This document shows, piece after piece, positions 11,778 through 57,310 of a DNA stretch of 64,000 nt (positions within the stretch are counted from its first letter, which is position 1; every line of letters starts with the position of its first letter). The notes beneath the pieces were generated by a model. It was not told where the DNA came from. It made no database searches and was given only the letters and a program-made list of their open reading frames with translations. The DNA lies in assembly GCA_045612105.1 (NCBI GenBank), contig JAZKYL010000113.1, positions 122,315 to 186,314 of the forward strand, written 5' to 3'. The position numbers and the translations under genes are program-made. This DNA comes from Eubacteriales bacterium. Its GTDB lineage: Bacteria; Bacillota; Clostridia; Oscillospirales; CAG-272.

Positions 11778-13676
11778 ATGAAGATCTACGCTTATCTATA
11801 CGAAGGATCAAAACGTTCAAAGGGCTCTTTTGGTCGCCCCACAAGTCCTATCTGCAATCTCCGCGAAACGAAAATTAATGGTGTCACGCTGGTCTATGCC
11901 GACGTGATAAGCGAATGGGCACTTCATCCCGAATTTGCCGTCGGAATTGATATTCCCGTCGAGGGCAGATATATGGCGGATTTCAGAAGCAGTCAATTCT
12001 GGTGTCAGCCAAAATTCGGTAACAATCCCATAGATATACCCGACGAAACTCAGCTTTTGATATTTCAAAATGAAAAGGGCGATTTCAAAGTTATTTTGCC
12101 CGTAGTCGGAGACGCGTACCGTTGTGTACTCAAGGGCAAGGATGATCATACGGTAACTGCAAGGCTTTATTCGGGATATGAAAAGCTCTGCACCTGCAAA
12201 TCACTCGCTTTCGTTACGGCTGAAGGAAAAGAACCTCATAAGCTAATTGAAAAATGCGTACTTACAGCACTTGAAGCGTTAAACTCCAATATTCCTCACA
12301 GAAAAGACCGCAAGTATCCCGAAATATTCGAGTATCTCGGCTGGTGCTCCTGGGATGCTATGCAGATAAGAGTGACACACGAGGGCATTCTCGAAAAGTG
12401 CGCCGAATTCAGGGAAAAGAAGATTCCTGTACGCTGGGTCCTGTTTGACGATATGTGGGCCCACGTCCGTGATTTTTACGGCAGAAGCTACAATAGCTTC
12501 GGAGAGATGTGCGCTATGATGCATGCCAGCGCACTATACGATTTTGAAGCCGACCCGATACGCTTTCCAAAAGGACTTGCCGCTTGCATTGAAGATGTGA
12601 AAAAGCAGGGCTTTATTGCGGGCATTTGGTATCCCACAACGGGATATTGGCGCGGAATTGAGAAGAACAGCCCCGCATATGAAAAGCTGATGCCATATCT
12701 TCTTGAGACCGACGACGGCATCTTCGTGCCCGATTTTCTCCGCGATAAATCATATGGGTATTACCGCACGCTCAATGAATTTTTCAAGGAATGCGGTGCA
12801 GACTTTATTAAGATCGACAACCAAAGTATGTATCACCGCTTTTATAACCGATTGACTACCGTTGGCGAAGCGGCTCATTCCTTCCACGATGGAATGGAGC
12901 AGGCAACAGAGGATACCTTTGGCAATTCGCTGATAAACTGTATGGGAATGTCCTCAGAGGATATGTGGAGCAGAAAGATGAGTTCCGTATCCCGTTGCAG
13001 TGACGATTTCCAACCCGAAAACAGGGCTTGGTTCACAAAGCATATCCTTCAGTGCGCATATAATTCGCTTCTGCAGGGTCAGTTCTATTGGTGTGATTGG
13101 GATATGTGGTGGACGGATGACGGTCAGGCGCTGAAAAACAGCGTTGCGCGCGCTATCAGCGGTGGCCCCATCTACGTCAGCGACAAGATCGACAGAAGCC
13201 GTGAAGGTATTCTCGATCCTCTCGCTATGAGTGACGGCAGAATCCTACGTTGCGACGATCCCGCTACTCCCACAGCCGACTGTATCTGCACAGACCCTAC
13301 CTCTTCGGGTAAGCCGATGAAGCTACAGAACGTCTGCAAAGGAAGTGGTGTTATGGCACTGTTTAATCTTGATAGGGATAATAACGCAGTTTCCGGTGAA
13401 ATATCTCCGTCCGATATCATAGGGCTCGAAGGGGAAGAATTCGCAGTATATTCTCATTTTACAAAAGAACTTAAAATATTGAAATACAATGAAAAAATGA
13501 AAATTTCGCTTCAAGATAACGATGCTGTCGCGCTGTATATATTCGCGCCGTATATAGATGGCTTTGCGGAGCTTGGAAGAGTCGACAAATTCATTTCGCC
13601 CGCTACTATTGCAAATACAGAGTCCGACAGCGGAAACTACGCGTACGTACAGAATGGAGTGCTCTGCTACAAATAA
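11778..13676 (+). CDS. GH36 raffinose-synthase/Sip1-like alpha-galactosidase family protein
   Basis: GWCSWDA, KIDNQ, RCSDDFQP, CDWDMWW and ISGGPIYVSDK motifs match the raffinose synthase/Sip1 signature. AAGGAG SD precedes the ATG at 11778. Confidence 0.8.
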   Translation: MKIYAYLYEGSKRSKGSFGRPTSPICNLRETKINGVTLVYADVISEWALHPEFAVGIDIPVEGRYMADFRSSQFWCQPKFGNNPIDIPDETQLLIFQNEKGDFKVILPVVGDAYRCVLKGKDDHTVTARLYSGYEKLCTCKSLAFVTAEGKEPHKLIEKCVLTALEALNSNIPHRKDRKYPEIFEYLGWCSWDAMQIRVTHEGILEKCAEFREKKIPVRWVLFDDMWAHVRDFYGRSYNSFGEMCAMMHASALYDFEADPIRFPKGLAACIEDVKKQGFIAGIWYPTTGYWRGIEKNSPAYEKLMPYLLETDDGIFVPDFLRDKSYGYYRTLNEFFKECGADFIKIDNQSMYHRFYNRLTTVGEAAHSFHDGMEQATEDTFGNSLINCMGMSSEDMWSRKMSSVSRCSDDFQPENRAWFTKHILQCAYNSLLQGQFYWCDWDMWWTDDGQALKNSVARAISGGPIYVSDKIDRSREGILDPLAMSDGRILRCDDPATPTADCICTDPTSSGKPMKLQNVCKGSGVMALFNLDRDNNAVSGEISPSDIIGLEGEEFAVYSHFTKELKILKYNEKMKISLQDNDAVALYIFAPYIDGFAELGRVDKFISPATIANTESDSGNYAYVQNGVLCYK

Positions 13677-18589: not shown

Positions 18590-18624
18590 AAATTTATCCC
18601 CGAGAACTCTCGGGGATAAAAAAT
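18590..18624. terminator. bidirectional terminator
   Basis: TATCCCCGAG-aact-CTCGGGGATA flanked by A and T runs. Confidence 0.8.
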
Positions 18625-36156: not shown

Positions 36157-36986
36157 TTTTTCTTACCCTTTTTCTCGTTTTCGGATACGTCTGCCTCTGC
36201 CTTAGCGGCAAGCTTTGCCTCTTCGTCGGCTCTCGCGCGGAGAATTGCCTCGGCGAAATAAATGTCCATAGGATCGGTTACCTTGATGTTTTCCCTTGAG
36301 CCTTCTACGAGTTTTACGGGAATGCGGATGTGCTCAAGGAGCGACGCATCGTCGGTTCCTTCGAACTTTTCGTCGCGTGCAATATAGGTAGCCGCACGAA
36401 ACGCGTTGATTTTAAACACCTGGGGGGTTTGCGCCTGCCAGGTCATCTTTCTGTCGGGAGTCTCTTCCACAAACGCGCTCTTATCACCAATCTTTACGGT
36501 ATCGACCGCTTTGATCGCCAACACAGCACCGCCGTGAAGGTATGCTCCATGGCAAGCCTTGTAGATCATTTCACCGGTAACGAGACATCTTGCCGCATCG
36601 TGAATTGCAATATACTTTGATTTATCGTTTACCGCATCCGAGCCGATCCTTGCGGATTCCTGTCTCGTCTCACCGCCTTCAATAACTTTAAACGGTTTTG
36701 TTATTTTATATTCTTCCACAAATCCGTCATATTTTGCTATTTCGTCAGCTTTGGCAACGACTATTATCTCATCAATAAGGGGCGATTTTTCAAACTCAAG
36801 AATAGTTCTGACAACTACGGGCATTCCGCAAAGCTCAAGGAACTGCTTTGTAGAATCTCCACCCATTCTGGTAGAAGAGCCTGCCGCGAGAATGACTGCC
36901 GAGGTATAATATTTTTTGCCCGTTTTGCCGGCTGTCGCGCGCAAGACTTCAGCGACCTTGTGCGCCGTATCTTTTCTTTCTGCCAT
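36153..36986 (-). CDS. ispD: 2-C-methyl-D-erythritol 4-phosphate cytidylyltransferase, with short charged N- and C-terminal extensions
   Basis: [13 protein letters not shown] motif and the IspD fold pattern. Start set at the ATG at 36986 with GGAG SD. The track ORF (to 37052) reads through the upstream repeat element from a TTG. Confidence 0.88.
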
Positions 36987-37108
36987 TATAATCTCCATTC
37001 CGCCGCCAAGCGGCGGCACAAATAGTAATCGATGAATTTTGCCGCACGGCAAAATTCGCGCGTGAAAAAGATCGTTTCACCTTTATATTGGAAGTAACTT
37101 TCACGCTA
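36987..37108 (-). promoter_or_regulatory. copy A of a recurrent ~122-nt three-hairpin leader/intercistronic element
   Basis: H1: GCGUGAAAG…CUUUUUCACGC. H2: GAAUUUUGCC-gugc-GGCAAAAUUC. H3: GCCGCC-gcuu-GGCGGC, followed by GGAG SD and ATG. 104/122 positions are identical (hand count, gapless) to copy C. Confidence 0.7.
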
Positions 37109-37125
37109 ATCAGCCTTTCTGAAAA

Positions 37126-43852: not shown

Positions 43853-43876
43853 AGGGCTCTCCAACAGGAGAGCCCT
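43853..43876. terminator. bidirectional terminator
   Basis: AGGGCTCTCC-aaca-GGAGAGCCCT between convergent genes. Confidence 0.75.
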
Positions 43877-45440: not shown

Positions 45441-45470
45441 GCCTCCCGAGACGACCTCGGGAGGCATTTT
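45441..45470. terminator. bidirectional terminator
   Basis: GCCTCCCGAG-acgac-CTCGGGAGGC followed by TTTT. Confidence 0.8.
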
Positions 45471-48315: not shown

Positions 48316-48418
48316 AATAGCCTCCTTTCTGCCGCCGTCGGCGGCAAAAAATAGTGGATGGATTTTGCTTTTCGGCAAGATCCACGCGTAAACCTGCTTT
48401 TTATGCAGGCCTCACGCT
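48316..48418 (-). promoter_or_regulatory. copy B (diverged) of the three-hairpin leader element
   Basis: H1: GCGUGAGG-CCUGC-auaaaaa-GCAGG-UUUACGC. H2: GGAUCUUGC-cgaaaa-GCAAAAUCC. H3: UGCCGCC-gac-GGCGGCA. AGGAGG and ATG follow. Confidence 0.6.
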
Positions 48419-48563
48419 GTCCTCCATTTTCAAGTATTTGGCGACGGGAATATAATTTGTCGCCTTAATCCGCTGGGGTCTTACCCCAAAATATTGACCT
48501 GCACTCTGACTTTTAGTTTTCATGAGCGTCGGCGCATGAGCTTTATTTGCTTATGCTGTGGCA

Positions 48564-48592
48564 ATTATATCACACAAAAAAAGATTTTGCAA
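48564..48592 (-). promoter_or_regulatory. sigma-A promoter (TTGCAA-17-TATAAT) giving a ~240-nt 5' UTR
   Basis: Read on the minus strand. Confidence 0.55.
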
Positions 48593-48669
48593 TACTTTTG
48601 ATGAATTTTTTTTGTATTTTTTTCACAGATTTAATTGTATCAGATCGCAATTAATTAACCAAATACAAC

Positions 48670-48720
48670 AAAAACGTCCTTAAAGCCGAATAATCACGGT
48701 ATTAAGGACATTTTTGTTTT
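48670..48720. terminator. bidirectional terminator
   Basis: GTCCTTAA-n18-TTAAGGAC flanked by A and T runs. Confidence 0.7.
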
Positions 48721-56468: not shown

Positions 56469-57191
56469 ATGAAAATTTTGAAATTTGCGACTTACGACGA
56501 AATGAGCGCGGCTGCTGCCGATATTCTTGCGAAGCAGATCAGCATTAAGAAGGATTCTGTTTTGGGTCTTGCAACCGGTTCCACACCCGTTGGAACTTAT
56601 AAAAGACTTGTTGAAATGAACAAGTCGGGAATGATCGATTTTTCTGAGATCAAGACCGTAAACCTTGACGAATACTATCCTATTTCTCCCGAAAACAAGC
56701 AGAGCTATCGTTATTTTATGAACGAAAATCTTTTTGATCACGTTAATATCAACAAGGCAAACACCTACGTTCCCGACGGTATGGCAGAGGATGCAGACCT
56801 GGCTTGCGAGAACCATGAAAAGATCATTCGCGCTCTCGGTGGAATCGATATTCAGGTTCTTGGCATCGGACAGAACGGTCACATCGGTTTCAACGAGCCC
56901 GAGGAAAATCTCTCGCTCTTTACTCACAAGACCGCACTCACCGAGAACACCATCCAAGCAAACTCCAGATTCTTCTCCGAGGACGAGGTTATTCCCACTA
57001 TGGCTCTCACCATGGGTATGGGAACTATTTTCAGCGCAAAGAAGATTCTTCTTCTCATCAACGGCAAGAATAAGAGAGATGCATTTGAACAGCTCTTTAC
57101 CGACAAAATCACCACGTCCTGCCCCGCAACACTTTTGAAGCTTCATCCCAACGTAACTATTCTTTGTGACAGTGAAGCTTACGGCGAGTAA
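56469..57191 (+). CDS. nagB: glucosamine-6-phosphate deaminase
   Basis: GLATGSTP and LGIGQNGHIGFNEP motifs. Confidence 0.92.
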   Translation: MKILKFATYDEMSAAAADILAKQISIKKDSVLGLATGSTPVGTYKRLVEMNKSGMIDFSEIKTVNLDEYYPISPENKQSYRYFMNENLFDHVNINKANTYVPDGMAEDADLACENHEKIIRALGGIDIQVLGIGQNGHIGFNEPEENLSLFTHKTALTENTIQANSRFFSEDEVIPTMALTMGMGTIFSAKKILLLINGKNKRDAFEQLFTDKITTSCPATLLKLHPNVTILCDSEAYGE

Positions 57192-57310
57192 CGTGAAAGT
57201 TACTATCTTTCTTATAGTGAAGCGAACTTTTTCACGCGCGAATTTTGCCTTACGGCAAAATTCATCGATCACAAATTGTGCCGCCGTTTGGCGGCGGAAT
57301 GGAGATTAAT
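57192..57310 (+). promoter_or_regulatory. copy C of the recurrent three-hairpin leader/intercistronic element
   Basis: Fills the entire nagB-to-UPF0340 spacer. H1: CGUGAAAG…CUUUUUCACG. H2: GAAUUUUGCC-uuac-GGCAAAAUUC (57240-57263). H3: GCCGCC-guuu-GGCGGC (57280-57295). GGAG at 57301, ATG at 57311. Confidence 0.7.

Follow-up and report, generated by a model that had tools for sequence, protein, structure and literature searches.

The 64,000-nt window analyzed here (contig JAZKYL010000113.1 of a Eubacteriales bacterium, positions 122,315 to 186,314) contains three copies, A, B, and C, of a ~120-nt element in which three hairpins (H1 to H3) are followed by a Shine–Dalgarno (SD) sequence and, immediately after, by the start codon of a gene. 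These copies are insertions at sites that are empty in syntenic relatives, they occupy a fixed position and orientation relative to the downstream gene, and they carry an SD of their own, with the native SD kept upstream and the hairpins conserved. We consider it reasonably likely that they belong to a family of non-autonomous, insertion-polymorphic, SD-carrying repeats that targets start codons in uncultured gut Clostridia.

Copy A lies between rpiB and ispD and, when read on the minus strand (37107-36987), opens with AGCGUGAAAG and closes with GGAGAUUAUA (Table 1). Its layout is exactly the one described in the initial annotation, i.e., three hairpins, then GGAG and the ispD ATG, with GGAAU between H3 and GGAG, and the second GUGAAACG segment noticed earlier within H1 is indeed present. 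The same annotation took the entire rpiB-ispD spacer to be one unit, which holds except for the 18 nt beside the rpiB stop codon (37125-37108, including CAGAAAGG): these are native sequence, homologous to the empty-site spacers of relatives L141, L038, and L039 (L-numbers denote fetched loci). Copies A and B are identical at 103 of 122 positions in a gapless alignment against 57189-57310, compared to the 104/122 previously given for 57192-57310, and BLAST aligns them over 92 nt with 91% identity. Copy C differs in sequence, yet all three hairpins are retained through compensatory and restructuring changes. Folding z-scores for A, B, and C were -3.9, -4.0, and -5.1, respectively, and none of 200 shuffles folded as well. 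A covariance model (CM) run with filters off recovered exactly these three copies in the window, and the composite H2-H3 pattern is expected to yield 0.00 chance matches there.

Table 1 Coordinates of the three copies, insertion sites compared between relatives, and isolated 3′ modules. Positions refer to the window unless a locus is named.
Feature	Position	Strand	Context
Copy A, whole inserted element (AGCGUG ... GGAGAUUAUA)	36987..37107	-	between rpiB and ispD; CM R1 = 133.5 bits
Copy A, H1: GCGUGAAAG (37106-37098), 27 nt, CUUUUUCACGC (37070-37060)	37060..37106	-	GUG inside at 37104-37102
Copy A, H2: perfect 10-bp stem, GAAUUUUGCC-gugc-GGCAAAAUUC, 4-nt loop	37034..37057	-	
Copy A, H3: GCCGCC-gcuu-GGCGGC	37002..37017	-	
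Copy A, SD GGAG (36996-36993), 6-nt spacer AUUAUA, and ispD ATG (36986-36984)	36984..36996	-	
Native rpiB-ispD spacer remaining upstream of copy A	37108..37125	-	displaced native ribosome-binding site (RBS) CAGAAAGG at 37121-37114
Copy B, whole element	57190..57310	+	Glucosamine_iso-family gene (stop TAA 57189-57191) to TIGR01440/DUF436 gene (ATG 57311); CM R1 = 128.6 bits
Copy B, parts	H1 57192-57236; H2 57240-57263; H3 57280-57295; SD GGAG 57301-57304	+	
Copy C, diverged element	48316..48418	-	upstream of 944-aa gene (ATG 48315-48313); CM R1 = 81.7 bits
Copy C, parts	H1 48386-48417; H2 48358-48385; H3 48330-48346; SD GGAG 48325-48322	-	
Stranded native SD ahead of copy C (GGAGGAC)	48419..48425	-	its GGAG 6 nt from the element GUG
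Site A (rpiB to ispD)	occupied: window		empty: L141 (IspD 90% identical; TGATTTTGTGAAAGGTTAAGATA-ATG), L142/L143 (87%), L038 (81%), L039 (80%)
Site B (Glucosamine_iso gene to DUF436)	occupied: window		empty: L033/L034 (...GGTGAATAAT-ATG), L035/L036
Site C (flavoprotein gene to 944-aa gene)	occupied: window, L035/L036		empty: L033
Site D (sigma factor to 433-aa gene)	occupied: L033/L034		empty: window, L035
Site E (rpe to 402-aa gene)	occupied: L039		empty: window, L037
~60-nt 3′ module, Roseburia sp. 831b megaplasmid NZ_CP135163.1	L138 1490-1550 (about 203,460-203,518)		
~60-nt 3′ module, fecal "Bacteriophage sp." contig MT836273	L140 2490-2550		

Among relatives sharing gene order over 20 kb, five sites are polymorphic for the presence or absence of the element. 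Since these include empty alleles at both A and B, the copies are insertions. The window itself carries empty alleles of the other two sites, at the sigma factor/433-aa junction (53782 region, AGAGGTGTATTTATATGA) and at the junction downstream of rpe (34812 region, GGGTGATATAATG). At site B the junction is exact: native GAGT^AAT-ATG has become GAGT[AACGTG...GGAGATT]AAT-ATG, and the stop codon of the upstream gene, split by the insertion, is restored by the first bases of the element. Three nucleotides separate the insertion point from the ATG at sites A, B, and D, and likewise from the native GGAG upstream wherever a canonical one exists. The closest relative at site A (L037, IspD 93% identical) no longer has either the native CAGAAAGG or the body of the element, and all that is left is TGATTAT-CGGAATGGAG-AAAATA-ATG. 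Because its surviving tail, CGGAAUGGAG, shows a 10-nt identity at the same position, we infer that it is a remnant of the element, in which case the element-borne SD would now be the sole RBS of ispD. Called gene starts are wrong near elements or remnants at L037 10001, where IspD is called from an ATG within the SD tail (ATGGAGAAAATA-ATG), and at L039 12282, where the gene following the element is called from inside it. In addition, the L039 copy between rpe and the next gene (12155-12200) displays a 16-bp tandem duplication at its 5′ junction, with GATAATAGCGTGAAAG occurring twice across the boundary between flank and element, which the insertion or replication slippage may have left behind.

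To establish the extent of the family, one genome per species was scanned with a pattern restricted to the 3′ arm of H2 and to H3, i.e., not including the SD. This returned 32 loci, 28 of which derive from ~10 metagenome-assembled genomes (MAGs) of uncultured gut Clostridia/Eubacteriales with 1-6 hits each; the remaining four, from proteobacteria (L002, L005, L014, and L024), have neither hairpins nor SD and were discarded as chance matches. A scan of metagenomes with an H2-only pattern added 27 further copies confirmed by the covariance model, and de-duplication left 61 distinct copies. Every complete, non-tandem copy is followed directly by a start codon (ATG, or GTG in one case) opening an open reading frame (ORF) of 50-944 codons, and nearly all complete copies display a GGAG-N6-ATG spacing, even though neither search pattern required it. 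The constant orientation and the unrelated nature of the downstream genes (IspD, DUF436, a 944-aa protein, and others), initially proposed from A, B, and C alone, hold across the whole family. The 3′ end, GGAAUGGAG-AUU, is near-invariant between copies; the SD-like sequences flanking the element upstream vary as native RBSs do, and in 26 of 50 copies an upstream SD core stands at the identical offset GGAG-N6-GUG. As selection for a workable spacing would permit ~4-9 nt, the 6 nt seen in nearly all copies between the element-borne SD (hereafter SD2) and the ATG looks more like targeting than selection.

Two explanations had been put forward for the element in the initial annotation. A structured repeat donating translation-initiation regions agrees with the 61 copies in a single orientation, their SD-N6-ATG ends, the empty sites, and the L037 tail, all of which can be explained without a module dedicated to cis-regulation or processing. 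In its own right, a host cis-acting mRNA module, possibly a co-opted repeat, with hairpins serving as intercistronic or 5′-leader stabilizers or as processing sites, seems unlikely to us. Under such a model, H1 and H2 would guard the upstream message from 3′ exonucleases and H3 would guard the downstream one from 5′ decay, so that the expression ratio of the neighboring genes would be tuned. The location of the copies is compatible with this, since a co-directional ORF ends ≤40 nt upstream of about half of them and many of the others follow an extended -10 box by 25-35 nt, i.e., sit in a short 5′ leader, as are the survival of hairpins through sequence remodeling (H1 of copy C), their modest covariation, and the conservation of some orthologous copies above synonymous sites (see below). 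However, the same sites are element-free in close relatives, the downstream genes are unrelated, and neither a sense-strand sigma-70-like promoter nor an intrinsic terminator was detected inside A or B, H3 not being followed by a U-run. RNase III is usually taken to need a long duplex, for which the stems of the element are too short. Overall, a cis-regulatory role fits poorly with presence/absence in close relatives and with unrelated genes, and would be secondary or co-opted at most.

When the hairpins were checked for covariation across all 61 copies, 96.4% of cells corresponded to standard pairs, and 11 of 26 pairs changed on both sides, compared to 2.2 after shuffling and 3-4 for slid partners. 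Changes on both sides affected 6 of the 8 pairs of H1, and L035 provides a compensatory variant of H3 (GCUGCC..GGCAGC). Because the alignment was fitted to the model, we regard this covariation support as modest. Antisense folding is poorer than sense folding by 4-6 kcal/mol, which favors structure at the RNA level without proving it; the hairpins could also play a role on single-stranded DNA. As H2 is a perfect and highly conserved inverted repeat (GAATTTTGCC-N-GGCAAAATTC), one may alternatively picture it as a double-stranded DNA operator bound by the dimeric regulator of a regulon. This is extremely improbable given that the spacer between half-sites, i.e., the H2 loop, is anywhere from 3 to 6 nt long depending on the copy, that pairing is preserved by compensatory changes, that H2 of A and B lies inside operons and downstream of any promoter, and that presence/absence among relatives speaks against a regulon.

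Between the native SD, stranded upstream by the insertion, and the GUG that GCGUGAAAG places in the 5′ arm of H1 there are 6 nt. Translation from this GUG reads M-K-V-T-x-x and then meets a stop codon in the H1 loop, often a double or triple one. A frame-0 stop within codons 5-12 was found in 48 of 55 copies, compared to 28 and 16 for the other two frames and 23.4 ± 3.6 (maximum 36) for composition shuffles; the copies comprise 52 distinct loop sequences but are of common ancestry, and the counts are thus non-independent. In one copy the GUG is replaced by AUG, and the remodeled H1 of copy C still reads V-R-P-A-stop. Median unpaired probabilities were 0.01 for the GUG, 0.51 for the AUG, and 0.34 for SD2. 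Taken together, these patterns suggest how a start-codon insertion might be tolerated. The element lies ~3 nt ahead of the ATG and, where a canonical native GGAG exists, 3 nt behind it, with the native SD left upstream. SD2 would take over initiation of the gene, and even an essential operon such as rpiB-ispD could then tolerate an insertion. Any ribosomes loading at the old SD would meet a GUG base-paired in H1, i.e., a masked decoy, and the ~5-10-codon mini-ORF, closed in frame in the H1 loop, would end any that initiate there and prevent out-of-frame read-through. The hairpins, in turn, may be retained for a mobilizing machinery acting on single-stranded DNA or RNA, and/or as an mRNA-stability buffer.

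The same features could instead reflect leader-peptide control, in which translation of the GUG mini-ORF, acting as an upstream ORF (uORF), opens H1, alters downstream folding or coupling, and thereby regulates the main ORF. The exact 6-nt distance between SD and GUG, the enrichment in in-frame stops, and the AUG substitution are all consistent with this, as is an ORF that spans the whole element in B and in the second L011 copy, ending at or overlapping the main ATG. We nonetheless find leader-peptide control distinctly improbable, since the upstream SD is native sequence older than the insertion, the peptide is conserved only as M-K-V-T, the GUG is paired in H1, and no alternative pairing was found that would couple the opening of H1 to SD2. 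The long uORF across the whole element (A, B, and L011) was rejected as a signal: beyond the H1 loop there are almost no stops in any frame, and long ORFs are thus expected by chance.

We then considered whether the element belongs to a known family. The initial annotation could not name one and, consistent with this, a Rfam scan of the whole window gave no hit at gathering score, but the reverse complement does match TD-2 RNA (RF03162) below threshold. Reverse strands of A, B, and an unrelated copy gave scores of 28.2, 32.4, and 31.7 bits (gathering 48.7), with E = 0.003-0.02 in 301-nt searches, and the alignment covers model positions 1-98 of 98 with all three stems paired. Copy C had no TD-2 match; in the 301-nt searches TD-1 did not match the sense strand at E ≤ 10, and the sense strand of B yielded only a 17.8-bit TD-2 match. 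Other Rfam matches obtained in E-value mode (csRNA, miRNA families, lactis-plasmid) were dismissed as spurious or due to a hairpin at 48667-48718. TD-1 and TD-2, which belong to Rfam clan CL00124, were reported in 2007 as uncharacterized multi-copy motifs of Treponema denticola only (Weinberg et al. 2007, PMC1950547), and TD-1 was noted to take, as a rule, a 5′ regulatory configuration relative to genes and to overlap in part reverse complements of TD-2 (PMC1950547). The element resembles TD-2 in having three hairpins in the same order and multiple copies per genome, in a near-identical middle hairpin (GAGUUUugcc-guaA-ggcaAAACUC in TD-2, GAAUUUUGCC..GGCAAAAUUC in the element), and in similar outer stems (cUgAAa/uUUcAg, accgcc/ggcggu), and it resembles TD-1 in its 5′ configuration to genes, all complete copies being directly at start codons. 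However, it matches on the reverse strand and below gathering score, its hosts are gut Clostridia and not Spirochaetes, and the published description of TD-1/TD-2 (PMC1950547) includes neither start-codon insertion, nor an SD, nor presence/absence polymorphism. The element is therefore a probable distant relative of TD-1/TD-2, not a member.

This similarity also raises the question of a product from the opposite strand, i.e., a TD-2-like small RNA, given that the sole Rfam similarity is on the reverse strand and extends over the full model length. We view an antisense product as very unlikely: the scores fall below the gathering threshold, the downstream gene strictly dictates orientation, with SD and ATG belonging to the conserved unit, a search of the antisense strand gave neither a conserved promoter nor a conserved terminator, and it is the sense strand that folds better.

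Similarities to other dispersed repeats are more general. Like REP/BIME, ERIC, Correia, and BOX/RUP/SPRITE repeats, the element is short, hairpin-forming, multi-copy, non-coding, co-transcribed with its neighbors, insertion-polymorphic, and found as modular variants (PMC3049150). Those repeats, however, lie at variable distances from genes, many in both orientations and many with terminal inverted repeats and target duplications, and pneumococcal ones are enriched between convergent genes (PMC3049150), whereas the element lacks terminal inverted repeats, keeps to a single orientation at a fixed 3 nt from the ATG, and brings an SD with it. In particular, the RAYT-associated REP/BIME sequences occur as inverted pairs or in both orientations and mostly at gene 3′ ends, unlike the single orientation, the position at the 5′ end of ORFs, and the head-to-tail tandems seen here. 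A comparison with IS200/IS605-derived elements such as PATEs identifies common features in hairpins near both ends, the lack of terminal inverted repeats and of a clear target duplication, orientation-specific insertion next to a short, here only SD-like, motif, and stem-loops that outlast the loss of the transposase. The IS605 stem-loops of Borrelia are another example of such elements (PMC2775950). Differences are that no TnpA or TnpB partner was found for the element within the fetched loci, that H1 starts only 1-2 nt from the 5′ boundary, an atypical spacing into which the IS608 geometry of guide and cleavage site would not fit, and that the target, SD-like or "NNN-ATG", is set relative to SD and ATG with no clear tetra- or pentanucleotide.

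Several other candidates could be set aside. [quoted passage not shown] Integron attC sites are single imperfect hairpins that close promoterless cassettes at their 3′ end, in arrays beside an integrase, which does not correspond to three separate hairpins in copies located between core housekeeping genes in conserved synteny. Leader-peptide and 5′-stabilizer leaders of Firmicutes (ermC-type, STAB-SD of cryIIIA) similarly combine an upstream SD not serving the main gene, a short ORF, and hairpins before the real RBS. These leaders are gene-specific and vertically conserved, however, whereas the upstream SD of the element is a displaced native RBS and the cassette is dispersed over unrelated genes.

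Beyond the polymorphic sites, the family shows signs of proliferation and of a modular build. In MAG JAZNER01, six copies at six loci are mutually nearest neighbors, with 81-95% identity (five at 90-95%) and diagnostic variants in common. Head-to-tail tandems occur in L008 and L131, and solo H3+SD units were found directly upstream of full copies in L006, L018, L061, and L063, and alone in L029. Variant copies at L007 2106-2265, L022 622-783, L132 13112-13271, and L015 1966-2053 contain an extra ~40-nt module, inside or replacing H1, which carries its own hairpin (ACCGC..GCGGU) in a modular construction like that of BOX elements. In viral contigs, five pattern matches included no real copy according to the covariance model, while in plasmid and phage collections only the 3′ module (linker, H3, SD) was detected, on a Roseburia megaplasmid and on one fecal "Bacteriophage sp." contig. 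These two modules are near-identical (GGRACACTTTC-ATTACTATTTGTG-H3-GGAATGGAGATTATT-ATG), have neither H1 nor H2, and stand at the start codons of two unrelated genes, a pattern that speaks for horizontal spread and modular assembly. The annotated start of the Roseburia gene is apparently 40 nt too far downstream. A link of this module to IS110 was rejected: a transposase gene is located ~250 nt away, but there is no element half on its other side.

Regarding the mechanism of mobilization, the family has no terminal inverted repeats, its 5′ end (AGCGTGAAAGTTAC) being unlike the reverse complement of its 3′ end (ATTCCGCCGCC...). Together with strict orientation, near single-nucleotide positioning, head-to-tail tandems, and the lack of a convincing target duplication, this points away from classical DDE cut-and-paste MITEs and toward HUH-type single-strand transposition, site-specific recombination, or template switching at microhomology. 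It is possible, if doubtful, that these repeats constitute an unrecognized class of mobile elements that homes to the spacer between SD and start codon almost to the nucleotide and in one orientation, remains expression-neutral by virtue of a replacement SD and a masked decoy start followed by in-frame stops, is moved by a non-DDE mobilizer (HUH-type, guided recombinase, or template switching at SD microhomology), and includes TD-1/TD-2 as members. A full-text literature search found no description of an RBS-inserting element.

Several observations weigh against a start-codon-inserting repeat family as proposed here. Neither a mobilizing gene or autonomous partner nor isolated H1 or H2-H3 halves were present in the 0.88 Mb of fetched loci. 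A target-site duplication was not demonstrated, similarity between the two flanks of the same copy being marginal (p = 0.04-0.05, permutation test), although a few copies do have an odd variant common to both flanks (GGAGATC in L009, GGAGAC in L132, GGARGCC in the second L011 copy). The excess of G-U over A-C pairs, 28 vs 19, amounts to a weak preference for the sense strand. The mini-ORF is not closed early in A and B, which are 1-nt variants in this respect, and both its role and the take-over of initiation by SD2 are steps that we infer from sequence. Finally, conservation in some orthologous copies exceeds that at third codon positions in the neighboring gene (0.94-0.98 vs 0.73-0.85), while others evolve at about the neutral rate. 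Conservation above that of third positions suggests constraint, possibly through a host function or homogenization between copies, and not a purely neutral passenger.

The remainder of the window included some structures that are distinct from the element. Other perfect 10-bp hairpins occur at gene ends (1891-1916, 18594-18619, 43853-43876, and 45441-45465) and are probably ordinary terminators, unrelated to it; no tRNA or tmRNA was found in the window. The hairpin at 48667-48718, long, AT-rich, and near-perfect, is located just 3′ of the flavoprotein-family gene and resembles a bidirectional terminator. Between a promoter-like site at 48592-48564 (TTGCAA-17-TGnTATAAT, a good extended -10 type) and copy C lies a structured leader of ~145 nt (48419-48565, minus strand), 5′ of the 944-aa gene. 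Both L033 and L035 have this leader in conserved form, with seven compensatory pairs among the three sequences and the motifs GAAAGCUAAAAGUCAGAG and GGGG..CCCCAGCGGAUGAAGGCG. This leader has no Rfam match and may be an undescribed cis-regulatory RNA.

If the proposed reading is correct, selfish DNA would be able to colonize compact genomes, including essential operons, without silencing genes, by inserting into an RBS and supplying a replacement. Repeats could also rewrite translation-initiation regions, and in one relative ispD appears to have an element-derived SD as its only RBS. Practically, gene callers misplace start codons around these elements, which may also interest synthetic biologists as an "insulated RBS cassette" of natural origin. 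A concrete and testable interpretation would likewise become available for TD-1 and TD-2, motifs long unexplained, and if the positional precision stems from the insertion machinery, that machinery would represent a new kind of site-specific tool.

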